NCBI GenBank assembly: GCA_000004985.1
Contig: GG738904.1
DNA length: 64,000 nucleotides
Origin: Naegleria gruberi
Lineage: Eukaryota
Reading direction: 5' to 3' (one strand)
The translations under genes and the position numbers were made by a program. Shown here one piece after another: positions 6,598-61,668 of this stretch. Below the pieces are notes generated by a model, which was not told the origin of the DNA, did not search any database, and worked only from the letters and a program-made list of their open reading frames with translations. Position 1 is the stretch's first letter, and each line of letters begins with the position of its first letter.

Positions 6598-8305
6598 TTA
6601 TTGCTTTTTAATCTTCTTGAATGCCTTCTTGGCCTTCTTATTGGCTTCCTTAGCCTTCTTTTGAGACTTTTTGGATTTGAAGATTTTAGCCTTCTCGGTT
6701 GCTTTCTTTGCTCTTCTGGCAAGTCTACGAGCTTGTCTAAAAACACGACGAGCCATACGGTCAATCTTCTTCTCAGATTTGGATCTCTTGAATTGGGCAA
6801 TCTTCTTTACTCTCTTCAAGAACTTCTTCAAGAATTTAACCCTCTTGGATTTGTTGTTCTTCTTGGCCTTCTTGATTACCTTCTTCAAGTGCTTGTACAC
6901 CTTTTTGGCTTGCTTCTTGAGCTTTCTGATGGCACGTCTGGCTGCTCTCTTTGCTTTTCTGGCTCTTCTTCTTGAAGACTTGGATCCAGACTTGGTTGCT
7001 TTGAATGCTTTCTTTGCCTTCTTGATTGCTCTCTTGGCCTTTCTTTGGTAACGTCTGAGCTTTCTGACACACTTTGGAGTTCTTCTCTTTTTGCCACCCT
7101 TCTTTGAAGATGATTTGCCACCCTTTCTGAAAGAACCCTTCTTGAGCTTTCTTTGAATCTTTCTCAAGAGTCTCTTTTCCTTTCTGACCTTCTTTTCAGA
7201 CTTTCTTACCCTCTTGGCCATCTTTTTGACCTTCTTGAAAGCTTTTCTGGCACATTTAGCTTTGACCTTTCTTGCCTTCTTGAATGCCTTCTTTGCAGCC
7301 TTCTTGAGTTTCTTGGTCTTGTTTTCTTCCTGCTTGATGATAGACTTGACCTTCTTGATTGCCTTCTTACCCTTCTTCTTGATTGTCTTTTTCAATTCCT
7401 TCTTTTCAGCAGATTGGACCTTCTTGATTGTTTTACCAATTTGAGCACCAATCTTTTCTCCAGATTGAATAGTATCCTTGACACAAGCATTCCAAGCAAC
7501 TGGATGCTTCTTTTCATTCAAACCAGCCTTCTTACAAACCTTCTTGGCTGCTTCCTTTCTCTTTGGAGTTTCTTTCTTGAGTTTGACAGTACGAGTGAGT
7601 TTTCTTTGTAAATGATTGTGGAGAATACCAGTGGCAGTCTTTTTAGATTCATTAACATTGAGACACAAACCAGAAGTGAATGAAAGAGGTTGAGGAGCAT
7701 CAACAACAACTGAAATGTATCCAACAGAACCCAATTGTGCTTGCCAAGCTTGATTACGATACCAAGACATTGTCAACTTGGCACCATTGGATGCAGTAGC
7801 AATAGCAGTTTGGGCATTGACTCTATTGACAGAACCAGAACCAATCTTTTTGGTTTCACCAACAGCAAGAGGAGCTTGAACACCATCAATATAGAAAACA
7901 TCAGCATTGACATCATATTCAAAGACCTTAGAACCCAATTTTACAGCAACATTGGAATTGACAGAGGCAGCTGCCCACTTTGAAGTTCTTTAAAACAAGA
8001 TGTAAGTTAATTCTAATTTTCATAATAAATTACCTTATATGTACAATGAATTCATCATCATTACTTTGAGCAAGGATATAATCACCAAGTCCCATAAAGT
8101 CAAATCTTTTACTATCAAAGCTCAACATATGAGGATCGCCCAAAGCTTCGCATTTCTTGTAGGTCAATTGAGCTACTTGTCTTTGAACAACCTTGAGTGG
8201 TTTAGCTTTAATCACTTTGCTTAATGCATGAACATCCACAAGTACAAATGCCAACAGGCAAGTAATACCTAGAGCTAGATAGAGAAGGCTCTTCAAGCTT
8301 TTCAT
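6598..8305 (-). CDS. Secreted VWD-domain protein with ~330-aa polylysine/arginine C-terminal tail; join(complement 8034..8305, complement 6598..7987), 46-nt intron at 7988-8033
   Basis: ATG at 8305, signal peptide MKSLKSLLYLALGITCLLAFVLVDVHA. VWD hallmarks CEALGDPHMLSFDSKRFDFMGLGDYIL and ...SGLCLNVNE (cf. GDPHY-TFDG / GLCGNFNG). Donor GTAATT and acceptor TTTAAAG join ...EFIVHIR|TSKWAAASV... in frame (554 codons). The tail is an irregular KKAxKK repeat. The plus-strand ORFs 6601-7611 are antisense artefacts of AAG/AAA codons. Confidence 0.65.
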
Positions 8306-8567: not shown

Positions 8568-10207
8568 ATGAGAAATTTTGGTGTTTTAACAATTGGAACA
8601 AGGTAAATCTCAATCTTTACCAATTATTATGAAAATAATATTAAATATTAAATATTTAATAGAGGTGATTTTCAGGTAGGTTGTTGATTGATTTAAATTT
8701 TGATGTGAGTGATATATATTATTCACATCATAGCCAATGTTTGCATTTGCTTTGGAATTACAACAACAACTTGTTGATGATCAAGTCTATTTAATTGCCA
8801 GCGAAATTTATCGGAATAATTATGAATCTATTCTTCAACAATCAAACAAGTTGGCTGCGAGATTACAATTCAGAGGATTAAGTGGAAATCCAAAGGAAAC
8901 AATGCAAGATCCGAGAACGCAACAAGCATTGAAAACTGGTGATTATGCAACTTTGATGGCTTTAACAGCTCGTCCAGGACAAATTCTAATGGAAAAGAGT
9001 ACAAACGACATGTTTGAATTGGTAAAGGAAATCAAGTTTGATGGATTAATCACTTGTTCGATGGGAATGCCAATTATTTGGATGTTGAGTGAGAAGTATG
9101 AGATACCAATTGCTTACTTGGGATTAGTTCCAGAGGCTCCAACAAGTGATTTTCCATTCTGTGTAATTTCACCAGTCTCTCTTGGTAGCCCAGAGAAGAA
9201 CTTGGCTTCCTACGATTCAGTCTATAAGGGATCAGCTGCCAGAAGTGAGGAAATGATAAACAATCAACGAATGAGCCTTGGTTTGGAAAAATTGAAAGGA
9301 AAGGATTGGTTGTCTTTGAAGGAGGATCATGACATGCCAATTTGTTATGCCTTTTCAAAGATGGCATTTGGAGGAAAGACACCAAATGGTTACAGGGATA
9401 ATATTAATTTGATTGGATATTTGGAATTGAAATTGGAAAATGAAAAATTAGAGTCTGAAATTGAAGAATTTGTAAAGGATGGAAAGGAAAAGCCAATATT
9501 TCTATCATTTGGATCTATGCCTGCACCAGATCCTTTCCAATTATTTGAACTCACCCATCATGTTCTCTCTGTAAACGCTAATAGGAGAGTAATCTTATCC
9601 TGTGGTATGTAGTAGTTAGGATTATGCTCAAAATTATGACTATGGCAACTTGTAATAATGCATTACAGGATGGACTGAAATGGATCAGGTATTGAAAGAT
9701 TTAAATGAACGTAAATTTGAACATAATCAAGACAAATTTTCAAATGAAGAATCTGGAAAATATACAAACTTAATCCAACAATTGAAACAATTCATGCAAG
9801 AGGACAGATTATTAATCATCAAGGAAGCTCCATACTATCTCCTCTTTCCAAAATGCTCTTGTATTGCTCATCACTGTGGAGCTGGTACAACTGGAACAGC
9901 ACTCATTGCTGGTATTCCTCAAATTCCACTTCCTGTTTTTATGGATCAACCATTCTGGGCTCAAAGAATGCATGATTTGGGAGTTGCCTCTCCTCCCATT
10001 CCATTCAAGGACATTACCAATGAGAAGATTAATTCCTCCATTGAATTTGTATTGGAAAGTGATGAAAGTCAAAGAATCAAAGAAAGGGCCTCCGAAATTA
10101 AGAATCAAATTGCTAAGGAGGATGTAAATCCTCTCTCCCGATCCGTCGATTGCATACTTGATTCCCTCTTAGGAGACAAACCATTCATTGTACCCAAGCT
10201 TCTTTAA
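8568..10207 (+). CDS. Sterol 3-beta-glucosyltransferase-like UDP-glycosyltransferase (GT1, UGT80/UGT51 type); join(8568..8602, 8663..8675, 8734..9604, 9669..10207)
   Basis: Exon 1 plus the 13-nt micro-exon give MRNFGVLTIGTRGDFQPMFAFALEL, the GT1 N-terminal motif (LTxGSRGDVQP). The C-terminal exon has HHCGAGTTGTALIAGIPQIPLPVFMDQPFWAQR (UDPGT signature, cf. HHGGAGTT...GDQFFW). Introns are GTAAAT..AATAG, GTAGGT..CATAG and GTATGT..TTACAG. 486 codons in frame. Confidence 0.8.
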
Positions 10208-10454: not shown

Positions 10455-13400
10455 ATGTCCACACTAATTCATCAAGACGTGTTGGACTATCTTGCCCAAC
10501 ACTACTCTTCTCCATCAAGCAAAGAACAACTAATTGCTACGGGTACTTATGGAGCAGTTTACAAAATATTGAAAAATAATAATTATATTGCTTTGAAAAT
10601 TATGAGACATTCTGTGGGATTTAATATTAATGAAGCCCTCGGAGAGGCTGTTAAAATGGCCAAATACAAACACAAGAGACATATTGTTAGGATTGATGAG
10701 GTTTTCATTGTGAATGAATGTAAATCTGGATTATATTTGTGTATTGAGATGGAATTTTGTGAATTTGGAACATTGAGTACAATATTTAGAGATTCTAAAC
10801 CCTCTGAACAAGTATTATGTACAATTTTGAAACAAATATGTCTAGCATTGAAGGAAATTCAAGAAGGAGATTCAATTGTTCATAATGATATCAAGGCAAA
10901 TAACATTTTAGTGAGGAGTTTTGATGGTGGGATGAATATAGATGTGGCATTGACTGATTTTGGGTTGTCTTTTTCAGTGGATGGACAAAATCATGATATA
11001 ATGTCTCTGTATCCACCACCTGAGGAAGTCGCATCTTTTGGAAGTGATATTTTTACATTAGGAGCATGCATGTACAAATTAATGATTGACAAGTCAACTG
11101 TTTTTAGATACGGAAATTTCAATTTTGCAAATCTATGTCAAGATACTAAATTTGAGGAGACAATAATAAGGGATTTGTGTGAAATTGGTCAGTATAGTCA
11201 ACGATTGGCCACAATTATTATTTCCATGATGAATAAGGAGGTCAGTGCTCGACCAAATATTGATACCTTATTGAATTGGCTGGAAACTTTAGATGAATCC
11301 AGCGAAAGCGTTAAAAATGAGCAAGAGGAATATATTTTGAGCTATCACCATCAAAATTCGAATAACGAGGAATGTGAGATAGCAAGTGATTTTGATAAGA
11401 AGAGACGATTTATGATGGAAACCGTAATTAGATTAACTGGTGCTCAACACGAGATCAGATTAGAAACTCAATACTTTCTGAAAAGAGAATTTAAAAATAT
11501 AGATGACTCTACATTATTGGAATACCAACGAAAAATCAATGATTTACTTCCACTCGAACAATTAGTTGATAAGACAATTTATCAGAGAAATAGAACAACG
11601 AATGCAAAGTTTAATATCCAATTTGCTGCTCACAAAGCAGCGGAAGAATTTGCAGTGGTCAGTAAGATGTTGGAAAGCTTTCATCAATATTTATTGTCAC
11701 TAAAACGGTATGGAGAAAAGGCACTTGAATGGGTAGAGAAAATTCAAAAACTAGAAGATTACTATTCTTCATATGCCACGAAATTGAGAACTATCACAAG
11801 TGACTTTGAGTTTTATCAATTGACAACGGATAAGGCAATACTAATGAGTGAAATGATTGAAGGTTTTTTCTCAATTTCACAAGATATGGCTCTACGCATA
11901 CTCAGTTTGAATGAAAGAGGAGAATCCTCTAACAGTCGACAAACCGAAAGTAATCATCGAGTTCGATTCTTGCCTGAAAAGGGAGAACCTGAAATTTATT
12001 TTAAACCCTTTACTTCATATCCTCCACTTTCACCCTCTCGCGAATTTGCTCTCAATTGTCTCTATCACAAAATTCAAATTGAAACTACTTTTACTGGACT
12101 AATCGTTATTGATAACGTGAAAAAGATGAATTCGTATTGGGAACATCCATTCTTTGTTCAAATATCTCAAGCTATTGAAGGATATTCAGGTATATCACTT
12201 GTTAGAAATAAGCTACCATTGTGTACGAACCATTTCTCACAACAAGTTATTGGAGCACTCATCACAAGTCCATCCGATGGAAAATTTGATAATTTTATTA
12301 TGAAAAAACTGAGTAATGAAAAGTATGGCCTTATTTCAATAGATAATGACGAGATATTCAGACCTTCTGTTCTGAAAAACAAGTACTATAATGTTAAATC
12401 TTTCCTTTTTTTATTGAAAGAAATGAATAATTCAGTGGATTCTGAATATAGAATATATTTAGACTCACTTATTCCTGAAATGATTTTACTAGAATGGACT
12501 CACGAACTTGCTCGACAGGAAGACAAGTACAAACGACTGTGGAATGATCTCGAATTTATGAAATGTAAATTCGATTCGATAATTTGGGAAGATTTTGATT
12601 TGTCCTTTTCCTCTTTCAGTGAATCAACTGCAACAACAATCATGCAAATGTTGAAAAAGATTCAGAATTTGTTGAAAGAAAACAAGCACTCAACCCTGAA
12701 AGATTTATTCTCCTCCTGTTATCCATTACATAGTAAGGTGTATGAGGAAGTGTCATCTCAATACGAATCTCTCGATGACCAATACTATGCAGTTCATAAC
12801 TATCAAGAGGAATTCACAACCACTTCTGGAGGATCAGACGAGTGCTATTACTTTTACGAGCATGATAGAATGAATGTTTCTGGATGGTCGTTATTCCATG
12901 AGTATATTTTAAGCCAAGTTCGATTGATGATTAATTATGAAGATGCTGTACTGCAATTCCATTCCTTGTTATTCATGAAGAATAAGCTGTCATTAACAAA
13001 CGTTCTTGTTTCACTTTCAATAATGATTAATGACAAGTTAGTGTTTATTAGAGATGTCAAAACGGCTTGTAATATTTATGCAATTGGATTGAAAGAGACG
13101 TATGCCAATTTTTTAAAAGAATGGAAATCAAAATTTCAACCATTTTTGGAAAACAATCCAGACCTAAAATGGGCATGCAAACTTGAGGATTATTTTCCAA
13201 GAGTAGATTATGATAATGATGACAAGAGATTTCCGTACAAGTTTGGAGAGATGAGAGGAGCCTTCATGGGTAAAAGATATTTATCAAAAGAAATGGAAAG
13301 AGCTCTCTTCAATAATGGAGAATTCATGAAAGATAACACTTTGACAGGCAGGTCATCTGTGAACAAATATCCTGCCAAAAATCCAATATTCTTCTTTAAA

Positions 13401-16340
13401 AAATGTCCAGAAATGCCAGTATTTGAACATGCATCCACATTGTTCATGAGAATAATGGGACTTACTGGTATTCCTCGATGTGAATTTGTAATATTTAGCT
13501 CCCACAAGGAGAGATTCCCAATTTTAATATCTGAGGCAGTTAATGGATTATTAGTGTTGGATTTATGGAATGCTGGAGCAGAAATTGGTGGATTGGATAG
13601 ATTTAATACTGGATTATTAATTGTTTGCTCAATGCTTCTCAATCCAGAAGATCAAAAGGAAGACAATTTCATTTTGGCCGGAAATCAATTAGTACCAATC
13701 GATAATGAGCATGTTTTTCTCCCTGGATCAGTTCTCTCCAAGACTGTTCTCAAAGTTATTCCGCAATTACAAACTAAGAGTTTGATATTTTGTGTGAATG
13801 AAATGAAAAAATCATTGCATAGAAACTTGGTTCAACAAATAATCTCTATGAATGTAGATCAATTTCTTCAACAATGGATGGGTGAATTAGTGGTTGTGAA
13901 TGATAAGTATAGTTCTCTATTCACAAAAGAAGAATCGGATAATCTTTGGGAAAATAAGGAAGTGACCGTGAGATTAGTTTTCAGTCCCATCTTTATTGAA
14001 AACCTTTTCAGAAAATTTCATTTACTTCAAAAGCTACTTGTTTCATATTCAAAAATTACTCCAGTTGAGTTGTTATGTAAATTAGAACCCTATGTAGGAG
14101 AAATTTACAGAGATAGTTTTGTGGAAAAGTCTGTTAAGCGCAGATTCATGCTTGTCACTGATACACTTTACAAAAAGAAAAAGATTGACAATTCTAGAAT
14201 TTCTGTTCACTCTAGCAAGCAAATAATGGAAATTATCAACATTGATAGTGCAACAATCAAGTCAGAATCAGAGAAATTTAACAAAGGACCTACAAATTCA
14301 TTGGAACAATTGAAAATTTTACAATCGAATCATTCACACAAGAATCAAGAAATAATTCCTGCAGGAAAGACCATGTCTACAAAAGATCAAGAACAATATA
14401 TTAAGAAAGTATTCACAACAACATCCCCTGTACAATTGGTGGCATTGAATTCGAACATTCTCAATTCACAACACATTTCCAATCATTTTTTTATTGAGAA
14501 ATTACCACTTATTACCTCACTTGATTTGAGAGGATGTAAAAATTTACAAGAGGAATCATTATTCATTTTACAAAAGTATTGTGTGAATGTTGAGTATTTA
14601 AATATAAGTGAATGGAAGTTGAAAATATTTGGTCATTTCACTAGAATTGAAAGATTTGTCTTTTCGAATGACATTATTGAAACAGATATCAATATTCCAA
14701 TATTTCCCTATTTACAAATTTTGATACTAGACAATATTCCAACTTTGAAGAGTATTACTCTTTCGCTACCTTCACTCATTAGTTTCCAAGCTGTAGATGC
14801 AGATGCTCGATTGTCACTATTTGCCTCTAATTTGAGACATATCAAGATTTCATGTGTTCCTAAATTAATTAATTATCTACTGACATTTCAAAAAGATCTA
14901 AAGCTAGAAGGTGGAATAGAACTTTCAATGGATAATTATGTAGACAGTATGTCAAAATTGGTTGTTGATGATCATTTAAATTTGTCAAAAGTATTTTTGG
15001 AAGAAGAATCCTTTCCACTATTCTATCTGACCATTACTTGTATGAAATTTCGTTCGTTGAAAACTCTTTCGATAGAAGGACGAAAATTATCACAACACAG
15101 TATTATAATAATTTCTCAAATGAAGAATTTGACCTCCCTTAATGTTTCCAATACTCAAATTGATGACCCAATGACACAAATAATTAGTACCATGTCAAAT
15201 ATCGAAAATTTAAGCGTGTCATATAATCAAATTGGAGACGATGGTATTGAATACCTTGTTTCTATGAAAAATTTACAACGGTTGGATGTTAGAGGAAATT
15301 TATATGGATCTAAGGGAAGTGAAATCCTAACTTCTCATAAGGAACGCATTCAAATATTCATGAATGCCAGAATTATCCAAGCAGACCAAATCACCATAAT
15401 GGAGCAAGTAATGAAAAAAAATGATCGAAAATGCTTTCAAGGAATGTATCAAGACAAAATGGTTCTTATTGAAATGATTGACCAAACAAATAACTTTGAA
15501 CATTATAAGCAACAAGATCTATGGCTTAGTTTGGATCATCCAAACATTTCTAGACTAATTGGAAGTGTTAAATTGAATGATAGTGAATTATATATAACAG
15601 ATCTTGCAAACTACAATCTAAAAGAAGTAATATCCTCTATTTCTTTGAGCCAAAAACTCGAATATCTCATAGATATTGCAAAAGGTATGAATTATTTGCA
15701 CTCTTTGAACCCTCCAGTCGCATTCAGAGATTTAAGGTTATCGAATATAATCATATCTGAGAATGAAGATTGTGCCAAAATTTATGGATTTGATTTGGCC
15801 ACCAATGTCCAAAAGCACATGTCAATATTAGTAGGAAGCTATGTGTATATTGCACCAGAAGTGTTGAAATTGGATGATTATAGTGAAAAGTGTGATGTGT
15901 ACAGTTTTGCAATTTTGCTTTGGGAAGTAGTGATGGGTATTCCTACGTTTGACAGTTATGAACCAATCAAACAATTCTTGAAAAGAAACTCTAAATATGT
16001 GAAAATGACAATCAATATTGAACAACCAACGACCTCACTTGAAATTTTGAAAAGAAAACCTCCCTGTATTCCCTTCCTATTGGATTCTGACTATGCCAAG
16101 TATAGTATAACTCATCTTGACAGTCCACCAAGAAAGTATGTGTTTATTCCAGAATTATTGGATCGATTTGTGAAAGAGTTCATGTTTAGTCAAGTAGAAG
16201 AATATCCAGAAAATCTTGAAACAATCAAGAACGTTGTGTATGGCTTATCTGTATTAGCTACTCGGTGTTGGGAAAATAATTCTAATATCAGACCTTCTTT
16301 TAGAGAAATTTTGGAAAATCTTACTAATCTTCATTTATGA
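10455..16340 (+). CDS. Large (1961 aa) protein: N-terminal Ser/Thr kinase domain, central LRR region, C-terminal TKL-like probable pseudokinase
   Basis: Single 5.9-kb exon ending TGA. N-terminal domain has GTYGAVYK...ALKIM, HNDIKANNILV and DFGLS (apparently active). LRRs around aa 1350-1650 (LDLRGCKNL..., LSVSYNQIGDDGIEYL...). C-terminal kinase-like domain has FRDLRLSN in place of HRDLKxxN and GFD in place of DFG. Confidence 0.75.
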   Translation: MSTLIHQDVLDYLAQHYSSPSSKEQLIATGTYGAVYKILKNNNYIALKIMRHSVGFNINEALGEAVKMAKYKHKRHIVRIDEVFIVNECKSGLYLCIEMEFCEFGTLSTIFRDSKPSEQVLCTILKQICLALKEIQEGDSIVHNDIKANNILVRSFDGGMNIDVALTDFGLSFSVDGQNHDIMSLYPPPEEVASFGSDIFTLGACMYKLMIDKSTVFRYGNFNFANLCQDTKFEETIIRDLCEIGQYSQRLATIIISMMNKEVSARPNIDTLLNWLETLDESSESVKNEQEEYILSYHHQNSNNEECEIASDFDKKRRFMMETVIRLTGAQHEIRLETQYFLKREFKNIDDSTLLEYQRKINDLLPLEQLVDKTIYQRNRTTNAKFNIQFAAHKAAEEFAVVSKMLESFHQYLLSLKRYGEKALEWVEKIQKLEDYYSSYATKLRTITSDFEFYQLTTDKAILMSEMIEGFFSISQDMALRILSLNERGESSNSRQTESNHRVRFLPEKGEPEIYFKPFTSYPPLSPSREFALNCLYHKIQIETTFTGLIVIDNVKKMNSYWEHPFFVQISQAIEGYSGISLVRNKLPLCTNHFSQQVIGALITSPSDGKFDNFIMKKLSNEKYGLISIDNDEIFRPSVLKNKYYNVKSFLFLLKEMNNSVDSEYRIYLDSLIPEMILLEWTHELARQEDKYKRLWNDLEFMKCKFDSIIWEDFDLSFSSFSESTATTIMQMLKKIQNLLKENKHSTLKDLFSSCYPLHSKVYEEVSSQYESLDDQYYAVHNYQEEFTTTSGGSDECYYFYEHDRMNVSGWSLFHEYILSQVRLMINYEDAVLQFHSLLFMKNKLSLTNVLVSLSIMINDKLVFIRDVKTACNIYAIGLKETYANFLKEWKSKFQPFLENNPDLKWACKLEDYFPRVDYDNDDKRFPYKFGEMRGAFMGKRYLSKEMERALFNNGEFMKDNTLTGRSSVNKYPAKNPIFFFKKCPEMPVFEHASTLFMRIMGLTGIPRCEFVIFSSHKERFPILISEAVNGLLVLDLWNAGAEIGGLDRFNTGLLIVCSMLLNPEDQKEDNFILAGNQLVPIDNEHVFLPGSVLSKTVLKVIPQLQTKSLIFCVNEMKKSLHRNLVQQIISMNVDQFLQQWMGELVVVNDKYSSLFTKEESDNLWENKEVTVRLVFSPIFIENLFRKFHLLQKLLVSYSKITPVELLCKLEPYVGEIYRDSFVEKSVKRRFMLVTDTLYKKKKIDNSRISVHSSKQIMEIINIDSATIKSESEKFNKGPTNSLEQLKILQSNHSHKNQEIIPAGKTMSTKDQEQYIKKVFTTTSPVQLVALNSNILNSQHISNHFFIEKLPLITSLDLRGCKNLQEESLFILQKYCVNVEYLNISEWKLKIFGHFTRIERFVFSNDIIETDINIPIFPYLQILILDNIPTLKSITLSLPSLISFQAVDADARLSLFASNLRHIKISCVPKLINYLLTFQKDLKLEGGIELSMDNYVDSMSKLVVDDHLNLSKVFLEEESFPLFYLTITCMKFRSLKTLSIEGRKLSQHSIIIISQMKNLTSLNVSNTQIDDPMTQIISTMSNIENLSVSYNQIGDDGIEYLVSMKNLQRLDVRGNLYGSKGSEILTSHKERIQIFMNARIIQADQITIMEQVMKKNDRKCFQGMYQDKMVLIEMIDQTNNFEHYKQQDLWLSLDHPNISRLIGSVKLNDSELYITDLANYNLKEVISSISLSQKLEYLIDIAKGMNYLHSLNPPVAFRDLRLSNIIISENEDCAKIYGFDLATNVQKHMSILVGSYVYIAPEVLKLDDYSEKCDVYSFAILLWEVVMGIPTFDSYEPIKQFLKRNSKYVKMTINIEQPTTSLEILKRKPPCIPFLLDSDYAKYSITHLDSPPRKYVFIPELLDRFVKEFMFSQVEEYPENLETIKNVVYGLSVLATRCWENNSNIRPSFREILENLTNLHL

Positions 16341-35447: not shown

Positions 35448-37985
35448 ATGTTGAATATTAATTTCTCATCATTGTCACAGTCCGATAAAAATTATATTCT
35501 CGAGCAAATTAAATGGAATGATTGTTCGTGTTTGGAGAAAGTAAACGAAACTTTAAAGAAGGACCGAGAATTCGTTTTGGAAACTATTAAAAAACATGGA
35601 TCAGCACTCGAATATGCCGATGAATCCCTCAAGCAAGATAGAGAATTTATATTGACAGCTGTCAAAACGAATGGAAATTCATTTCGTTACATTGATGAAA
35701 AATTTAAAAAAGATCGAGAAATTGTTTTGGAGGGATTTAAAGAAAATTTATCTGCACTTGAATATGCTGATAAATCATTGAAAAAAGATCGAGATTTCAT
35801 GTTGACAGCTGTCAAACAAAATGGACTAGCTCTTCAACATGCGGATAAATTATTAAAAAAGGATCGGAAAATAGTATTGGAAGCTGTTAAGGAAAAGGCA
35901 TATGCTTTTAAATATGCCAATAAATCATTTACAAAGGATAGAGAATTTATGTTGGAGGCAATTGAATCAAATCCGTATGCATTTGGAAATGCCAATGTTT
36001 CGTTTAAAAAGGATCGACAATTCATGTTGGATGCTGTGAAGAGAAATGGACTAGCTCTTCACTATTATCAAGATGATTTATTTAGGAAAGATAGAGAAAT
36101 TGTATTGGAGGCAGTTAAAACAAATGGGAAAATACTCAAACATCTCAGCGAATCATTTAGGAAGGATCGAGAAGTGGTGTTTCAAGCTTTTCAGAATTGG
36201 AAAAAAGCACTGAAATATGCGAGTGCATCACTCAGGAATGACAAACTCTTTCTCTATTGGATTTCCAAGCATGATTTGAATACAGCTCGAGAATATTCAC
36301 CACACCTCGTTCAAATCATTGAGAATCACAGCAAATTGCAGACTAAACTGTCAACGAATATTATTGACATTTACTCGAAAAGTTTCAGTGATGAAAATGA
36401 ATTGTATTACTGTTTGGAGTTGCCTAAGAATAATCCAAAATCAAAGAGTACACTTTTCAATCTCAATCCAACCTATTCTACTGTATTCATTGAAAAATTA
36501 GTGATATTTCAAATATGGAAACGATTGACTGAATCAACAATTGATATTTTCTATTTGGAATCTCCAAATTACTATTTATTTTGTTTCAGATTGGAGAAAT
36601 TTTTAGAGGAAAATAGTACTCAACCAATTGGTTTGAAGGATTTGAAGAGAGTTGTGGAAACTATTTCATCCAAATTCGAAACATCACATTATAACAAGAA
36701 GGAAACCAGTCAGATACTTTACTTTTTTACAAAATGGACAGAAAGCGAGAAGACATTCAACAATTACAAACAAATATTATCAAAATATAATGAGCTACAT
36801 GGAGACTTGTCTAAAATATTCAGAGCTATGAATCAGTATTACAATTATTTCAGTAATGATTATGATTTTATTTCGATATTGGGACATGGAGGTGAAGGAG
36901 TGGTATTAAAGGTATTCCATAAATCGAGTAGGTCACTTAGAGCTGTTAAATTCAAATATAACACCGAGGAAAGCGAAGAATCTGGGAATGAATTACTGAA
37001 ATTATTGAGACGAAAAGATTTGACTGGAAAGATCAATTACTTTGATTGTGGAATGATACATAATCACCTCTATTCTGTCATGGAATTGGGCGAGGAATCT
37101 CTGGCAGATTACATATCGAGGAATTTTGAAATTTACATGAATCGAACTGCAAAATCTAAAGACAAACTGATAGAAATTCTTCAAATATTTATCAAAGTAT
37201 TGGAATCAGTCAAGTCCATACATGATCACAACATTTTACACAGAGATTTGGATCCACAAAATATTGTCAAAATTCAAGATGAGTACAAGATTATTGATTT
37301 TGAAACTTCAAAGGTTATCAAGACAGGAAACTCAATCACCATTGCTCGTGGAAAATATTCATACATGTCACCTGAAGTGTCACATGACAGTTACACAGAT
37401 GACATGTTAAAAAATGGTGATGAAATGAAACTAGCTCATAATATTGGAAACATTACAATTTCATGCGATTTATTCTCATTGGGATGTATTCTCTTAAAAT
37501 TACTAACCAATGTTCCATTACAATTGGATGAGCAATTTATTCATGATTCGGATATTTCAAAATATAATGATAATTTTACCTATTTTAATGTGTATGGAAA
37601 GTACTTCTTCACTGTCGTGACGACATCTGAAGGAGAAATGAAACTACACTATGCCATTGAAAAATTAATCAATAGCTCAATTATGGAGGAGTATGGAGTG
37701 AATCATTTATTGATTCGATGTATCATTACAATGATTCAAAGAGATTCTTCCAAGAGATTATCTTGTCGTGTGCATAAAACTACACTGGAGAGTGTGGTCA
37801 AGTTTTTGAAAGGAGAAAGCAAAGAATTGAAGGAGATTACTGATTATAAGGAAATTATATCACTGAAAAGCTATTCTCAATTGATTGAGGAAAATAAGAA
37901 ACTAAACGAAAATCAGAAAGCATTGGAGGAGAAGATTAAAATCTTGGAAGAGGAAATAAGGAAATGGAAACTAAATAGTCAATAA
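35448..37985 (+). CDS. Protein kinase with N-terminal array of DUF4116-type repeats and C-terminal coiled coil
   Basis: About 9 repeats of the form KDREFVLEAVKxNGxALxYA(D/S)xxLKKDR. Kinase domain has GHGGEGVVLK (Gly loop), AVKFK (VAIK), HRDLDPQNIV (catalytic loop, K replaced by D) and DFETSK (DFG replaced by DFE). Single exon, 845 aa. Confidence 0.75.
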   Translation: MLNINFSSLSQSDKNYILEQIKWNDCSCLEKVNETLKKDREFVLETIKKHGSALEYADESLKQDREFILTAVKTNGNSFRYIDEKFKKDREIVLEGFKENLSALEYADKSLKKDRDFMLTAVKQNGLALQHADKLLKKDRKIVLEAVKEKAYAFKYANKSFTKDREFMLEAIESNPYAFGNANVSFKKDRQFMLDAVKRNGLALHYYQDDLFRKDREIVLEAVKTNGKILKHLSESFRKDREVVFQAFQNWKKALKYASASLRNDKLFLYWISKHDLNTAREYSPHLVQIIENHSKLQTKLSTNIIDIYSKSFSDENELYYCLELPKNNPKSKSTLFNLNPTYSTVFIEKLVIFQIWKRLTESTIDIFYLESPNYYLFCFRLEKFLEENSTQPIGLKDLKRVVETISSKFETSHYNKKETSQILYFFTKWTESEKTFNNYKQILSKYNELHGDLSKIFRAMNQYYNYFSNDYDFISILGHGGEGVVLKVFHKSSRSLRAVKFKYNTEESEESGNELLKLLRRKDLTGKINYFDCGMIHNHLYSVMELGEESLADYISRNFEIYMNRTAKSKDKLIEILQIFIKVLESVKSIHDHNILHRDLDPQNIVKIQDEYKIIDFETSKVIKTGNSITIARGKYSYMSPEVSHDSYTDDMLKNGDEMKLAHNIGNITISCDLFSLGCILLKLLTNVPLQLDEQFIHDSDISKYNDNFTYFNVYGKYFFTVVTTSEGEMKLHYAIEKLINSSIMEEYGVNHLLIRCIITMIQRDSSKRLSCRVHKTTLESVVKFLKGESKELKEITDYKEIISLKSYSQLIEENKKLNENQKALEEKIKILEEEIRKWKLNSQ

Positions 37986-39129: not shown

Positions 39130-40365
39130 TTAATATTGACGTTCCACAGTTTGAATGCTCTTCCACAATGAACCCATCTGATTTCGTGATAATTGAAGGA
39201 AACCAATTCCAACTTGTTTCAGTGGTTTCATTTTACTAATGTAAATTAATCCTTCATCATTAATTCCATTGTAACTGACATCGAGATAGGTCAATTGATT
39301 CATTTTGTTGATGAACGTTAATGCTAGATTGTCAATTGCACTTCCACTGATATTAAGGAAGGTCAACTGGTCCAATTGACTCAATAATTCAACTATTTCA
39401 TTATTAATACCATTATAAGAAATATCTAGAAGTTGTAATTGTTTCAATTTGATAATATTCTTAGCTCCTGAATTACCAATTTTAGTATTGCAAATGTACA
39501 GATGTGTTAATTGAGTCATTTCACAAATATGTTTAACACCAGTTTCTCCAAGTTTAGTATACGAATCGCTCAATTGTTTCAACTGTTTCATTCCACTTAT
39601 AAACTTAGCTCCTTTAGATCCTATCTGATTATTATTAATTACTAAAACAGTCAATTCATCCAAATTACTGATATATTCAGCTGATTTATCACTAATCAAA
39701 TTCGAATAAATATTTAATGTCTTTAACTGCTTGAATGAACTAATTAATTTGACTTGTTCATCAGTAGTTTCATTACCTGTAATACAAAGATACGTCAATT
39801 TACTCAATTGACTCAAATATTCAACTCCCTCATATGTAATATTATTTTTTGAGCCAATTGAAAGTTTGGTCAACTGGCTCAATTTACTTAAATAATATAG
39901 ACTTTCATTTCCAAAATTATTGTAAGAATCAACATGAATATCGGTTAAATTATTCAATCCTGCAAGATATTTAGCTCCTTTCGAATCAATGGTTTCACTA
40001 CTTAAATAAACTTTCGTTAATTTTTTCATAGATTCGAATATTTCACAATCGAATCGATTCGGAAGTCTAAACTTGTCAAAAACTTGCAGATTTTCCACAT
40101 TTTCCAAAAATTGACCTTTCAATTTCGTATCTTTTCTAATTGTTAACGAATGTTTAATTCCATTTCGAATAACATTAAACCATTGTTTAGAAACTAGGGC
40201 GCATTTCATCACTAAAAATTTAAAATCATCATGAAAAGATAAAATTTCAAATAATTCGTCATTACTGAATAAAAATACTTTTTTAAACGGATCTTGTTTG
40301 GAATGAGAAAAGTCAACATTGCTATTAGAAACTGGTGGAAAATTGTTGTTGATCATATCACTCAT
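39130..40365 (-). CDS. F-box / RNI-like leucine-rich-repeat protein
   Basis: N-terminal F-box-like FSNDELFEILSFHDDFKFLVMKCALVSKQWFNVI, then about 10 RNI-type LRRs (L..L.L..N.IGD.GAK.I..L.QL..L). Confidence 0.7.
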   Translation of the reverse strand: MSDMINNNFPPVSNSNVDFSHSKQDPFKKVFLFSNDELFEILSFHDDFKFLVMKCALVSKQWFNVIRNGIKHSLTIRKDTKLKGQFLENVENLQVFDKFRLPNRFDCEIFESMKKLTKVYLSSETIDSKGAKYLAGLNNLTDIHVDSYNNFGNESLYYLSKLSQLTKLSIGSKNNITYEGVEYLSQLSKLTYLCITGNETTDEQVKLISSFKQLKTLNIYSNLISDKSAEYISNLDELTVLVINNNQIGSKGAKFISGMKQLKQLSDSYTKLGETGVKHICEMTQLTHLYICNTKIGNSGAKNIIKLKQLQLLDISYNGINNEIVELLSQLDQLTFLNISGSAIDNLALTFINKMNQLTYLDVSYNGINDEGLIYISKMKPLKQVGIGFLQLSRNQMGSLWKSIQTVERQY

Positions 40366-40440: not shown

Positions 40441-41604
40441 TCATTCAATGAATTCATCATCTTCAACATCCTCAAAATATTCGTCATCATCTTCAACATT
40501 CTCATCAACTTCATCCTCATCATCATCATCATCCTCATCCTCATACTCATCACCTACAACAATGCCTCTATCCATGAGTCTTAATTGGATTTTCAATCTG
40601 TTGTCTGTTGCTATTTTTAATCCCAACTCTTCAGCTCTTGTGAATAATTCGAGAGCTCTCTCTAGATCTTCATACTCGTCTCTATTGGTATAGAACTTTC
40701 CTAAATCATTCATAGCACCTGGATCACCTTGATTAACTGCCTTCTCAAGCCAAAATCTATTCTTTTCTTTATCTTCATAACCAGGTTCAAAATGGAACAA
40801 GACTGCCAGGTTAATTTGAGCTCGTACATATCCTTGTTGTGCAGATCTGGTTGTCCACTTGAATGCTTTTCTAATATTCTTTTCAGTTCCAACACCATTT
40901 GCATAAAAGCTCCCAATTTTATATTGAGATTTCATAATTCCATGTTTTGCTGATTTTTTGAACCACCTGAATGCTTCTTTGTGCTCTTTCCTCTTTTCAA
41001 ACACCCTTCCAATGGTGTGGTGGGATGGCAAATGTCCCAATTCAGCAGCTTTCAAATGAAAATCAAATCCTTGAGATTTCTGATTGTGTGAATAAAGGGT
41101 AGTACCTGCTTTGTAAAGGAACAGAGGATTGGAGGAAGAGTTTGCAATTTCTACAAATAAATTGACTAGATCCTGATAATTTTCCACAATAATGCGTGGT
41201 AGTGCGAATTCAGTCAAGCTGGAAAGGAATGATGCTTTTCGTAAAACCTCACTGAAAGTGCCAAAATCAATCCGGTTTCCCTTCAATTCCAGTGTAACCA
41301 AGCTATTGAAATATTTACAAGAAAATACACGTTGTAAATCATGTATTGGAAGGTCACAATTATTAAGGTCCAATTGCGAAACTCCTTGCATTGCACTACT
41401 ACTACACATATCCTCAATACTAAAAGAATCAGTTTTTAACACTTCGATCCGTACCCATGGAAATGCATAGAAAACGTGATGAAAAGATTTGGCCACCAAT
41501 TGGAAACTCAAAATTTGAAATTTGTACTGAAAATTCTCAAGGAAAGACCGAATATAAAAAGCAATATCAGGTGGGATGTAGGTTCTTGCATGGTTGGTGA
41601 CCAT
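40441..41604 (-). CDS. Sel1-repeat protein with F-box-like N-terminus and ~45-aa acidic (D/E) C-terminal tail
   Basis: Sel1-like units (AAELGHLPSHHTIGRVFEKRKEHKEAFRWFKKSAKHG..., SQYKIGSFYANGVGTEKNIRKAFKWTTRSAQQG..., AQINLAVLF...). N-terminal IPPDIAFYIRSFL...FQLVAKSF is F-box-like. Tail is DEYEDEDDDDDEDEVDENVEDDDEYFEDVEDDEFIE. Confidence 0.7.
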   Translation of the reverse strand: MVTNHARTYIPPDIAFYIRSFLENFQYKFQILSFQLVAKSFHHVFYAFPWVRIEVLKTDSFSIEDMCSSSAMQGVSQLDLNNCDLPIHDLQRVFSCKYFNSLVTLELKGNRIDFGTFSEVLRKASFLSSLTEFALPRIIVENYQDLVNLFVEIANSSSNPLFLYKAGTTLYSHNQKSQGFDFHLKAAELGHLPSHHTIGRVFEKRKEHKEAFRWFKKSAKHGIMKSQYKIGSFYANGVGTEKNIRKAFKWTTRSAQQGYVRAQINLAVLFHFEPGYEDKEKNRFWLEKAVNQGDPGAMNDLGKFYTNRDEYEDLERALELFTRAEELGLKIATDNRLKIQLRLMDRGIVVGDEYEDEDDDDDEDEVDENVEDDDEYFEDVEDDEFIE

Positions 41605-55249: not shown

Positions 55250-56233
55250 ATGAAATCAAACGTAAAGTCTCATCATGTCGGGCTCTGCTTGATGATTGTG
55301 ATCATCATGTTGTTGCAACAGGTTATTCTCATCACGGGACAAGTTAATAACCGTCCAATAATTGGAATTATGGCACAACCAACATATAAGAAAACATATG
55401 GAGAATCCTATTTGGCTGCATCATATGTGAAATGGATTGAATCGGGTGGTGCTCGTGTTGTTCCAATTCCCTACGATCTTCCACAGGAAAAATTAAATTT
55501 ATTATTTAATTCTTTGAATGGAATTGTTTTTCCAGGAGGTGGAACTTCTTTGAGATACTCTGAATATTACTATACATTGAAATTCTTTTTTGATAAAGCA
55601 ATCGAGGCAAATAATAGAGGTGATTATTTTCCAATTTGGGGAACTTGTTTGGGATTTGAAGCATTGAATGTATTGGCTGCTGATAATCCAGATGTTTTAC
55701 ATTTTGGATTTGATTCAGAGAATTTAAGTTTGAATTTACATTTTGTTAATGATTACAAGAATTCTAGAATTTTTGGAAAGGCACCACTTTCAGTTATGCA
55801 AATTTTGGCTGAACAAAACGTAACCATGAATAATCATATGGCAGGTATAACACCTGAAACTTTCATGAAGAATGACAGATTGAATCAATTTTACAAAATG
55901 TTATCTGTTAATGCTGATAGAAAAGGACAAGTGTTTGTATCAACCATTGAAAGTTTGAAATATCCAATTTATGGAACTCAATTCCATCCTGAAAAGATTC
56001 AATTTGAATTCAACTATGAAGACATTAATCACTCATACGATAGCGTATTAGCTAATCAATATTTTGCCAACTTTTTCGTAAATGAAGCCAGAAAGAATCA
56101 ACACAAATTTAGTTCATTTGAAGTGGAACAATCCTATAGCATTTACAATTTCAATGCCAAATTTACATTCCCAGAAATTAGCAAAGATTTTGTTCAAATT
56201 TATTACTTTAATGCTAGTAGAATTAATTTTTGA
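55250..56233 (+). CDS. GGH: Gamma-glutamyl hydrolase (class I glutamine amidotransferase-like, peptidase C26)
   Basis: Signal peptide MKSNVKSHHVGLCLMIVIIMLLQQVIL. Catalytic Cys in PIWGTCLGFE and His in YGTQFHPEK. 327 aa, single exon. Confidence 0.9.
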   Translation: MKSNVKSHHVGLCLMIVIIMLLQQVILITGQVNNRPIIGIMAQPTYKKTYGESYLAASYVKWIESGGARVVPIPYDLPQEKLNLLFNSLNGIVFPGGGTSLRYSEYYYTLKFFFDKAIEANNRGDYFPIWGTCLGFEALNVLAADNPDVLHFGFDSENLSLNLHFVNDYKNSRIFGKAPLSVMQILAEQNVTMNNHMAGITPETFMKNDRLNQFYKMLSVNADRKGQVFVSTIESLKYPIYGTQFHPEKIQFEFNYEDINHSYDSVLANQYFANFFVNEARKNQHKFSSFEVEQSYSIYNFNAKFTFPEISKDFVQIYYFNASRINF

Positions 56234-58992: not shown

Positions 58993-59191
58993 TTTTTTTT
59001 ACAACACTTGACAGGGGAATTTAACAGTTTCGCTAGGTAATGTTTTGGTAAATCCAAAGTTGGTGTAATATTTTCAAAATCAAAAACCACAAGAACCAGT
59101 TCGATGTAGTATGTTGCCTCTTCATCATCACCTCTTTCAGGTACCTCAATTACATTTTATCTGATTAAGGTCTTGATATAAAAAATGTGCT

Positions 59192-59262
59192 CGTCTCGTG
59201 GTGTAATGGTAGCATAGTGGACTTTGAATCCATTGACGGAGGTTCGATTCCTCCCGAGACGG
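59192..59262 (+). tRNA. tRNA-Gln(UUG): tRNA-Gln (anticodon UUG), copy 1
   Basis: CGTCTCG TG GTGT AATGGTAG CATA GTGGA CTTTGAA TCCAT TGAC GGAGG TTCGATT CCTCC CGAGACG G. Cloverleaf with 7-bp acceptor (C1-G72), D-arm like eukaryotic tRNA-Gln, anticodon loop CTTTGAA, T-loop TTCGATT. No encoded CCA. Confidence 0.8.
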
Positions 59263-59294
59263 TAAACGTGGCGAGCCATTGAGATTTGCAAACT

Positions 59295-59344
59295 NNNNNN
59301 NNNNNNNNNNNNNNNNNNNNNNNNNNNNNNNNNNNNNNNNNNNN
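59295..59344. other. Assembly gap (50 N)
   Basis: Run of N. Confidence 1.
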
Positions 59345-59460
59345 TCTGAATTTCAATGAAATCTTTGGATAAACGTTTTAAAGCTCTGCTGTGTGGAGTT
59401 GCTGCTGTTGAATAGGAAGAATTTGACATTTTAATTGAAAGACAATTTGATGAAATTTAA
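59345..59460 (-). repeat. Near-identical second copy of the 5' end (first ~28 codons plus 5' UTR) of the E2/F-box gene, abutting a gap
   Basis: 59345-59460 matches 58186-58304 except for a short microsatellite-like indel (MSNSSYSTAATPHSRALKRLSKDFIEIQ vs MSNSSNSSNSTAATPH...). Flush against the N run, so consistent with an uncollapsed haplotype or contig-end overlap rather than a real exon. Confidence 0.6.
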
Positions 59461-59720
59461 AAGATTTTGATGGAATGTGGAGTCTGAGAAATCCGAATCT
59501 GTGTTTCGATTCAATTTTTTGTGAATGTTGATCGATTTTTGATTAGCTTGCAAATCGATTAAAAACTGATTTTTTTAGAGTTAAAAATAGAAGATCAAAA
59601 TTTTTCAACAGGTTCAATAAATTGTTTTAAAATTCATCAACTGATCAAATCATTTTAGAACCTTATTTTGAATTCTAAATAAGAAACTGATTCGAAATCC
59701 AAGGATTGTTGTTGATTATC

Positions 59721-60311
59721 TCACCATAGAACGGTGCAAATGAGTTTAGGAATTGATTTCTTACATGCCACATAAAAATCTTCACATGTCAAATCAACAA
59801 ATGAATAATTGTTAACTTGGATTCCATCAAAATAGTTATTCCACATTAGATGTTCAACATTCCTGTTGGTGTTATTTGTAAAGTTAAATGCAGATACTTC
59901 CAAGACGAAACTATTTTGTGAAACTTTGCACTTGTCAGAATCAATTGCCTAGATTCGAGTAACTCCACTCACATCAGAGGGGATTCCAAACATGGAGAGG
60001 AATGTTAGTTGCTTGATGGGGTTTGTTTTGTCTCCCCAAACCAGAATATTCAACTGTTTAATGTATCGAATAATGTTTACCAATACGAAACACAAAGGCA
60101 TTGCCTTATTCTCTGCCTTTTCATATAAAATTTCAACCCTTGATATCAAAATATGTCGATCACTATTATAATTATCCAAATTTAAATCCACCTCTTCAGT
60201 GAGAATTTCGTAAATTGTTCTGAATCGTTTTCCAGTAATTGATTCGATGGTTTTTTCATCTTGTTTCCAATATCCTTCATCTTTTATTAAAATATCGGCC
60301 TTGAGCAACAT
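59721..60311 (-). pseudogene. Inverted duplicate of the gene at 38278-38880 carrying a premature TAG stop and divergence in the 3' half
   Basis: Codons 1-119 MLLKADILIKDEGYWKQDEKTIESITGKRFRTIYEIL... are about 90 percent identical to the parent gene, and the upstream 80 bp is also copied. GAG is replaced by TAG at the position of E120 (59946-59948). The downstream part (...VNNYSFVDLTCEDFYVACKKSIPKLICTVLW) is in frame but diverged, with internal deletions. Confidence 0.7.
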
Positions 60312-60656
60312 TTTTCAAATCAAAATCCAAACTTGATAGGTGCAGTTCTTGTTTATGATTGTGTTATTTTTTGTAATTTTTTTGTGATTTTGATTGGGAT
60401 TGAGGTCTTAATAAACAATTTATAATGAATCATCTTATGGATGGAATGAAAAGAAAAGACTGATTGTTGGATAAAGTCAATTTGAAAATTTTTACAACTT
60501 AATGTGAGGTATGAAAAAAATTGCATGCCTGCCGAGGCTTCCAAAAAAAGAAATATAGATAATTTTTGAAAAATAAAAACGCCACTACCTTGATATGGAT
60601 GTCTAGTAGGGATCTATGAAAAATTGGGCAAAAATATTAAGAATTAAAAATTACTA

Positions 60657-60727
60657 CTCGAGTGCCGGGAATTGAACCCGGGTCGCCAGAGTGACAGTCT
60701 GGAATGCTACCACTATACCACACCCGA
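60657..60727 (-). tRNA. tRNA-Asp(GUC): tRNA-Asp (anticodon GUC)
   Basis: Reverse complement: TCGGGTG TG GTATAGTGGTAG CAT T CCAGA CTGTCAC TCTGG CGAC CCGGG TTCAATT CCCGG CACTCGA G. U1-A72 start and GTATAGTGGT D-arm typical of eukaryotic tRNA-Asp. G4-U69 wobble. Confidence 0.85.
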
Positions 60728-60988
60728 TTTCACATTTATTCTGAAACTATCCACTACCCTTATCTGTACAGAACGAATATTTAATTTTTTCTACTGAACT
60801 ACTAAAGTGTTGCACTTTCTTTCAAATAGAAAATAGTTTTATGACTCTATTCTCCTCTCCTTCTCTCAAGAAAGAAAATATTAATTTATTTTGGATACTT
60901 CCTTTTTATTAGCTAGTATCAGTAAAATTTATTCTTTCTTTAATAGTATTGTGAAATAATTTGTTCGAAGCCAAATGATTACAATTTG

Positions 60989-61150
60989 TGATGCTTGGTG
61001 GTATTTTACCCAATTCATTTTCGAATATATTTTTCAACTATTCGATAATTATCATCTGTTTCATTCAGATGGCTGTGAAATTGTGGATTTAATGAATGTA
61101 TTCATATTTACCCAATATAAACTCTCCACAACAGGTACAATATCAATATA
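60989..61150 (+). repeat. Degenerate fragment copy of the DUF3431-like gene (cf. 58465-58640), part of a duplicated gene-fragment plus tRNA-Gln block
   Basis: About 85 percent identity to 58465-58640 in the same orientation, with no intact ORF. 59080-59190 and 61320-61407 (the tRNA 5' flanks) are also similar. Confidence 0.6.
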
Positions 61151-61407
61151 AAGGTATTTTTGTATTGGTCACTCTAGTTGTTGTAATGCCAGGTTTTGAG
61201 GCTTAGAATTTAACGAAAATGGTTTGCCTTCTTGATGTGTTTTGAAGCTATGGGAGTAAACTACAATTTCCTTTTTGCTTAAAATTTAATCTCAAAACGC
61301 GGCATATTTTCAATTAATTATCAAAAACCAAAAGAACCAGTTCAGTCTACATAAATTGTTGCTTCAATTAAATATTATGATTAAGGTGTTGATTTAGTGA
61401 ATGTGCT

Positions 61408-61478
61408 CGTCTCGTGGTGTAATGGTAGCATAGTGGACTTTGAATCCATTGACGGAGGTTCGATTCCTCCCGAGACGG
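61408..61478 (+). tRNA. tRNA-Gln(UUG): tRNA-Gln (anticodon UUG), copy 2 (identical to copy 1)
   Basis: Same 71-nt sequence as 59192-59262. The about 10 nt upstream (AATGTG) and about 24 nt downstream (TAAACGTGGCGAGCC.TTGAGATTT) are also conserved between the copies. Confidence 0.8.
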
Positions 61479-61668
61479 TAAACGTGGCGAGCCCTTGAGA
61501 TTTTTCTTATTGAACTTTTTCTGTTTAACAACATGCAATACGCCTCAACAGAGATAGAACTCACTACTCAGTTCACCTATTGGTTACTGCTGCTATTAAG
61601 CAATTGAAGGAATAAGTTAATAATAATTGCTTGTGTTTGCGTTTACGTTTTACAATTTCCAGAAAAAA

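Follow-up and report, generated by a model that had tools for sequence, protein, structure and literature searches.

The 64,000-nt stretch of Naegleria gruberi DNA analysed here (contig GG738904.1 of assembly GCA_000004985.1; hereafter the window) carries, at 6598-8305 on the minus strand, a two-exon gene for a 553-residue protein that begins with a predicted signal peptide, continues with a von Willebrand D (VWD) domain bearing the GDPH motif and a conserved two-cysteine linker, and ends in a long tail of very high positive charge. The gene model is based on the sequence together with homologues of the same layout. The features of the gene are the following:

6598-8305, minus strand: whole gene, ATG to stop, encoding the 553-residue VWD protein with its polycationic tail
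8034-8305, minus strand: exon 1, 272 nt, with the ATG at 8305; residues 1-90 and two nucleotides of codon 91
7988-8033, minus strand: intron, 46 nt, phase 2, GTAATT...TTAAAG (GT..AG), within codon 91; a TTAAC lies some 20 nt ahead of the acceptor
6598-7987, minus strand: exon 2, closed by a TAA stop at 6600-6598 that is part of a TAA TAA double stop at 6600-6595
8225-8305, minus strand: predicted signal peptide, residues 1-27 (MKSLKS, then LLYLALGITCLLAFVLV, then DVHA, followed by LS), called from hydropathy
7663-8152, minus strand: VWD domain, from Cys52 to Cys199, a stretch interrupted by the intron
8129-8140, minus strand: GDPH motif, Gly56-Asp57-Pro58-His59, read from the sequence
7429-7647, minus strand: conserved helical linker, the stretch of about 70 residues after the VWD domain, with invariant Cys242 and Cys259 (...CKKAGL..HPVAWNACVKDTIQSGEKIG)
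6601-7428, minus strand: polycationic tail, predicted to be amphipathic and helical, residues 278-553 (276 residues, net charge +128)
7252-7254, minus strand: tail Cys336; counted from the end of the aligned head module, where the tail segment starts, it lies at a distance of 58 residues in each of the three Naegleria-type sequences

Gene structure and coding status

Splicing at the positions given in the original prediction yields a coding sequence of 1662 nt for 553 residues, and removal of the 46-nt intron is needed because the unspliced frame hits a stop immediately past ...FIVHIR. In alignments with homologues, the junction that joins EFIVHIR to TSKWAAASVN matches EFIVHTRHGKWAAASVN with zero indels. 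The homologous genes from N. fowleri (L002, 8001-9602) and from a metagenome contig in ENA (L001, 1930-3741) are single uninterrupted open reading frames (ORFs) of exactly the protein length. The indel-free junction with homologues from uninterrupted ORFs supports the spliced model, and the head and the tail therefore form one polypeptide. By sequence comparison, the 46-nt intron and the genomic position are specific to the N. gruberi lineage. The neighbourhoods of the homologues are unrelated to the window (RPAP1, TPMT, EF-hand and proteasome ATPase genes; CitMHS transporters; L002 and L001); because the neighbouring genes differ, there is no synteny between the window, the N. fowleri gene and the ENA gene. 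The window holds no second copy of the gene within its 64 kb.

For five further ORFs of the window, an exactly matching N. gruberi protein has been deposited (for example, XP_002671570 and XP_002671576), whereas the protein of this gene has no identical entry in the NCBI, UniRef and EukProt-derived collections. Its best relatives in a full-length search are only 39-44% identical, and an exhaustive search of 1.84 billion representatives with a head profile listed the N. gruberi paralogue and the homologues described below and nothing matching the protein itself. Since no identical protein was found while the neighbouring genes match exactly, the gene is apparently unannotated, and the public N. 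gruberi gene set seems to lack it. A protein-guided scan of Joint Genome Institute (JGI) metagenome contigs for close relatives returned none, a result that is uninformative rather than negative.

Codon usage bears on whether the gene is translated. AAG accounts for 94 of the 118 lysine codons in the tail and for 102 of the 135 in the gene as a whole, whereas seven other genes of the window use it for 43% of their lysines; the gene also prefers TTC, ATC and GTC. The N. fowleri and ENA genes show the same bias (71 of 84 and 97 of 111, respectively), giving 76-87% in the three family genes, and most of their neighbours do not; within the window, it resembles that of genes such as the one for saccharopine dehydrogenase (87%). 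Avoidance of poly(A) tracks was rejected as the cause, as simulated tails built with window-average lysine codons were also free of 11-of-12 A tracks. Read as translational selection, the AAG bias indicates that the gene is really translated. The L/F-rich antisense ORFs at the locus, which had been dismissed as artefacts from the start, are the mirror of this AAG-rich coding sequence. An unusually high AAG fraction (75%) also marks a divergent 291-residue ORF at 8737-9612, 431 bp upstream of the gene; it has no Pfam match at 1e-5 and is probably one exon of a bigger gene.

These data make it scarcely credible that the gene model is an artefact, in which unrelated ORFs have been joined or a decaying pseudogene retains a low-complexity ORF. 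The protein is not in the public sets searched, including the N. gruberi gene set, and a 28-mer across the exon-exon junction has no match in JGI metagenome contigs, where its absence is uninformative as a test of expression; but in N. fowleri and on the ENA contig a single unbroken ORF spans the same head and tail, the splice restores the homologue alignment exactly, the reading frame is intact and the codon bias fits the family.

The head is a VWD domain with the GDPH motif

Both sequence hallmarks on which the VWD assignment was originally made, CEALGDPHMLSFDSKRFDFMGLGDYIL and SGLCLNVNE, are present in the protein, and the assignment holds against the Pfam VWD profile (PF00094), which matches residues 52-175 above threshold with 31.5 bits when the whole protein is searched and 33.3 bits when only the head is (gathering score, 22.9). 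A phmmer search against PDB sequences returned FCGBP (8e-29, summed over repeats) followed by MUC5B, MUC5AC, MUC2 and VWF, with all matches centred on C-x3-GDPH-x3-FD-x3-FDF-x-G. An AlphaFold2 model of the head module of the ENA homologue, which is 54% identical, reached a predicted local distance difference test score (pLDDT) of 81.7, and its structural matches were to VWD structures only. On the strength of this model, the head is a VWD beta-sandwich fold.

Family alignments show Cys52, Gly56-Asp57-Pro58-His59, Cys199 (in the GLC motif), Cys242 and Cys259 to be invariant. The metazoan VWD cysteine set is incomplete, as only Cys52 and Cys199 are kept and the cysteine of the G-x-C-x-Y motif is replaced (GLGDYIL here, GTCTYLL in FCGBP); the head is thus a cysteine-poor variant that is still within the fold family. 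Cys52 lies five residues upstream of Asp57, and the positions of Cys52 and Cys199 appear to correspond to the FCGBP C472-C611-type pair.

GDPH is the Asp-Pro autocleavage motif of FCGBP, MUC2, MUC5AC and RGM (PMC8267560, PMC10880436). Cleavage requires both Asp and His and stabilizes the domain, and in FCGBP D10 it is abolished by changing D to A or N, or H to N (PMC10880436). The resulting FCGBP fragments are joined by one disulfide between a cysteine just upstream of GDPH and a cysteine late in the domain (PMC8267560). With the GDPH VWD domains of these animal proteins, the window protein shares the fold, the CxxxGDPHxxxFDGxxFDFxG motif and, apparently, cysteines at the interfragment disulfide positions (PMC8267560). 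It differs from FCGBP and the mucins in keeping only two VWD cysteines, in having a single head rather than 3-13, and in carrying a polycationic helix in place of the proline-, threonine- and serine-rich (PTS)/mucin, VWC and CK domains. The C8, TIL and E modules of the mucin/VWF D assembly were not found after the VWD domain, and there is no Pfam C8 match; the two-cysteine linker is possibly a reduced C8-like element.

The chemistry of the motif would allow a self-cross-linking wall or matrix protein, in which cleavage between GD and PH would leave a reactive Asp anhydride that is captured by lysine amines on adjacent tails or by sugar hydroxyls, building a covalent network such as a cyst wall or pore plugs. 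Although GDPH is invariant in all modules and the tail offers more than 100 primary amines, we regard this as very unlikely: the FCGBP anhydride is buried and simply hydrolysed, with no cross-links found (PMC8267560), FCGBP cleavage serves domain stability (PMC10880436), and a literature search found no Naegleria cyst-wall proteome.

The N-terminus predicts entry into the secretory pathway

The N-terminus, in which a signal-like hydrophobic segment had been proposed, is indeed the sole strongly hydrophobic stretch of the protein, with a Kyte-Doolittle peak of 2.56 for the 15 residues starting at residue 9. The hydrophobic core comprises 17 residues, residues 1-27 satisfy the -3/-1 rule, and a similar hydrophobic start is found in five of the six homologues. 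The 553-residue protein contains no transmembrane segment or glycosylphosphatidylinositol (GPI)-like end, so that a soluble secretory protein is the straightforward reading, and we infer from these sequence properties that the protein belongs to the soluble content of the secretory pathway. This route is also backed by a related protist protein (P0076), in which the same module occurs with mucin-like PTS repeats and a membrane anchor.

The tail is polycationic and predicted to be helical

Lysine accounts for 37%, arginine for 13% and alanine for 12% of the 276 tail residues, with 4% Asp and Glu and one proline. Over the last 338 residues, the combined Lys and Arg content is 46.2% (34.9% and 11.2%), close to the roughly 45% first estimated, but the accompanying statement that acidic residues are essentially absent does not stand, as Asp and Glu make up 4.4% (15 residues). 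Apolar residues recur every 3.6-3.7 residues with a power reached in none of 300 composition-preserving shuffles; with Ala counted as apolar, the same is true of five of the six homologue tails (4 of 300 shuffles in the sixth). The mean hydrophobic moment of the tail is 0.56 (0.265 +/- 0.027 in shuffles). A model of the full-length N. fowleri homologue has three long tail helices, at 261-322, 328-473 and 476-532, with a pLDDT of 70-86. The periodicity and this model point to an amphipathic alpha-helical pattern in the tail of every family member. Meaningful PDB relatives of the tail were not found, the only matches being designed helical repeats at E >= 0.001.

At the DNA level, the long, irregular lysine-rich repeats that had been noted resolve into units of 12, 21 and 24 nt in only two or three copies, degenerate and matching at 59-88%, with spacings that are multiples of 3 and often of 21 nt. 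Such short, degenerate and irregular units rule out the recent repeat expansion that had been raised for checking, and the tail is therefore old and irregular. Coding selection acts on the tail, as shown by a frame kept open over 276 codons in several species and by spacings between repeats in multiples of 3. The distance from the end of the head module to Cys336 is the same in the window, N. fowleri and ENA sequences. Alignment of the distal tail beats shuffles with z of about 6-8, a score that may reflect common periodicity rather than positional homology.

The tail had also been called histone-H1-like. As in the C-terminal domain of linker histone H1 and other lysine-rich DNA condensers, its lysine content and net charge are very high, and it probably shares with them a transition from disorder to order on polyanions. 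A histone H1-like tail is ruled out, however, by one proline in 276 residues, by the lack of any [ST]P[KR][KR] motif and by the lack of a linker-histone Pfam match. The window protein further differs from H1 in having no winged-helix domain, in its apolar period of about 3.6 residues and in its secretory signal, which replaces a nuclear context. It is also highly improbable that the protein is an intracellular nucleic-acid binder of the nucleus, nucleolus or mitochondrion, comparable to H1 or KAP, with a non-secretory N-terminus. Such extreme Lys and Arg content would bind DNA or RNA, and ribosomal protein eL32 is among the weakest PDB matches of the tail (E about 0.2), but the N-terminus is a 17-residue hydrophobic core and not an amphipathic presequence, and neither a linker-histone or other nuclear domain nor an S/TPKK motif is present.

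An amphipathic helix with net positive charge is, in turn, what the tail has in common with cationic helical antimicrobial peptides. As an antimicrobial effector or precursor, the protein would reach food vacuoles or prey, where its helices, whole or cut by lysosomal proteases at its numerous K/R sites, would permeabilize bacterial membranes. Besides the mean moment of 0.56, 41% of 18-residue segments of the tail exceed a moment of 0.6, and segments such as KFLKKFLKRVKKIAQFKR look like lytic peptides; moreover, Naegleria feeds on bacteria and releases pore-forming peptides (naegleriapores) from multipeptide precursors. Helical antimicrobial peptides are, however, about 12-50 residues long and roughly 40-60% hydrophobic, whereas the tail runs for 276 continuous residues, of which 18% are strongly hydrophobic and a further 12% are Ala, and has a mean hydrophobicity of -0.67, which makes it far more polar than typical members of the class. 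It also has no regular peptide-spacer or processing pattern. We therefore consider an antimicrobial role unlikely.

A conserved family in Naegleria and Willaertia

The fusion of a VWD head to a lysine-rich tail, whose first description implied a one-off, turned out to be a conserved family of Naegleria and Willaertia proteins deposited as 'hypothetical' or 'VWFD domain-containing'. In place of the orthologues with the same tail that were to be sought, homologues of this layout exist in N. fowleri, N. lovaniensis, W. magna and a metagenome, all of them uncharacterized. Six homologues were recovered:

N. gruberi NAEGRDRAFT_59485: 926 residues, two heads and a tail
N. fowleri FDP41_012263 (XP_044566319): 533 residues
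N. lovaniensis C9374_001324: 546 residues
Willaertia magna ABK040_003113 and ABK040_008784: 455 and 575 residues
ENA metagenome protein: 603 residues

Five of these were aligned with the window protein, and the alignment of head modules also took in both heads of the N. gruberi paralogue. The Naegleria and Willaertia 'VWFD domain-containing' proteins have the same order of parts (signal peptide, GDPH-VWD, two-Cys helical linker and K/R/A-rich helical tail), with head modules 39-54% identical to that of the window protein. Variation lies in the details: the N. fowleri and ENA genes are intronless, unlike the window gene; the window tail is rich in lysine, whereas that of N. fowleri has about equal K, R and A; the closest homologues end with a C-terminal cysteine (CLRIA) that the window protein lacks; in the Willaertia proteins, an extra basic insert precedes the head; and two heads are present in the N. 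gruberi paralogue.

Searched with a profile, the head alone matched 3850 proteins at E <= 1e-3, and the whole-module matches include the Naegleria paralogues FDP41_005632, C9374_012355 and FDP41_011818. Word-indexed searches with the head alone or the head alignment had returned nothing or one fragment, and the family surfaced only when the tail was included or the exhaustive profile was used; given the 3850 profile matches, these misses reflect a limit of the method and not absence. VWD domains in Naegleria were previously noted by Lang et al. 2016 (PMC4948705).

Among the wider matches, the metagenomic proteins P0103, P0046, P0049 and P0126 have the same VWD-plus-linker module with GDPH and K/R-rich segments, but their basic segments either serve as short linkers from one tandem head to the next or are rich in Arg, Cys and His, and do not form a long Lys/Ala amphipathic helix. 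Mantamonas plastica EP00003_P028365 (P0086) likewise has the GDPH-VWD-plus-linker module but is Arg-rich throughout, with no long Lys/Ala amphipathic helix. Its 1411 residues hold four such modules that are Arg-rich even within the domains, and the transcript model has no obvious signal peptide. P0076, encoded on a 719-kb JGI contig, has the same head, then a lysine-rich coil and mucin-like repeats of perfect TSVNSTTNT units, and ends, past a transmembrane segment, in an acidic cytoplasmic tail; by its sequence it is a membrane mucin-like protist protein. These comparisons suggest that the head is a recurrent extracellular protist module and that basic extensions are its recurrent partner, while the long Lys/Ala amphipathic helix seems to be confined to Naegleria and Willaertia among the proteins inspected.

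A second basic motif, approximately LKKxLxxKWNPxKxLSxxxxKxxxRxxxxxxxxCxRR, was observed at the C-terminus of P0009 and P0013/P0014 and at the N-terminus of P0061/P0048. At the N-terminus it marks another VWD subfamily, which includes N. fowleri FDP41_011818 (RGDPH, without the upstream Cys). The motif is not present in the window protein.

Proposed function

The architecture allows us to propose, tentatively and with somewhat less than even confidence, that the protein works outside the cell as an adhesive or agglutinin that binds polyanions, much like a mucin with its charge inverted. The head would fold in the endoplasmic reticulum and probably autocleave at Asp57-Pro58 like other GDPH VWD domains, which would stabilize the domain, and a Cys52-Cys199 disulfide would hold the cleaved head together; extra cysteines in the tail may pair the protein with other molecules. 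In solution, charge repulsion would probably keep the tail extended or disordered, and contact with a polyanion would condense it into helices. The protein would thereby stick or agglutinate by electrostatic attraction, like a natural poly-lysine, either outside the cell or within a compartment of the secretory or endocytic route; bacterial envelopes, the substratum, acidic wall or glycocalyx polymers and nucleic acid are candidate targets.

Several points weigh against this proposal. The signal peptide was called by hydropathy and the -3/-1 rule only, the structures modelled are those of homologues and not of the window protein itself, and it is the motif alone that suggests autocleavage at Asp57-Pro58. 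Polyanion binding would follow from the charge, which does not tell prey, substratum, wall and DNA apart, and multimerization is uncertain because the window protein lacks the C-terminal cysteine of its closest homologues. In the literature searched, no paper names any member of the family or reports the attachment of a lysine-rich tail to a VWD domain, and the architecture appears undescribed, as had been suspected.

A bolder form of the adhesive proposal, which we rate as quite unlikely, would make the protein a protist-invented charge-inverted mucin, that is, a self-assembling secreted polycationic glue for substrata, the capture of bacteria or the cyst wall, with the head multimerizing or attaching through its Asp anhydride to lysine amines or glycans.

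Other features of the window

The remaining observations concern other genes of the window:

59191-61479: tRNA cluster in which two tRNA-Gln(TTG) genes on the plus strand flank a tRNA-Asp(GTC) gene on the minus strand
35448-37985: protein kinase with five DUF4116 repeats
10455-16340: second kinase, 1961 residues, with leucine-rich repeats
39130-40365: 411-residue leucine-rich-repeat protein
40441-41604: 387-residue Sel1-repeat protein
55250-56233: 327-residue ORF for a folate gamma-glutamyl hydrolase

The full 327-residue product of the last of these is identical to a protein of the ENA ERZ929261 metagenome contig k127_541607 (L003), whereas the reference model for the gene (XP_002671580) has 287 residues and may be truncated or differently spliced.

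Implications

Mucins, von Willebrand factor and FCGBP are built from VWD domains, the pre-animal history of which is barely charted. The gene described here encodes a VWD extracellular protein, which is a known kind; what is new is the undescribed polycationic helical tail, in an uncharacterized heterolobosean family. In an amoeba lineage that branches deeply, the family presents a minimal two-cysteine VWD domain whose autocleavage motif is invariant, and the natural polypeptide joined to this head is very highly charged (+128 over 276 residues). The glue form of the proposal, if true, would add a new class to the known extracellular materials and give N. fowleri a possible factor in adhesion or virulence. 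Should the protein serve as an adhesive or agglutinin outside the cell, it would bear on how Naegleria attaches, feeds or encysts, including the brain-eating N. fowleri with its close homologue, and it would offer a simple system in which to study the purpose of GDPH cleavage.

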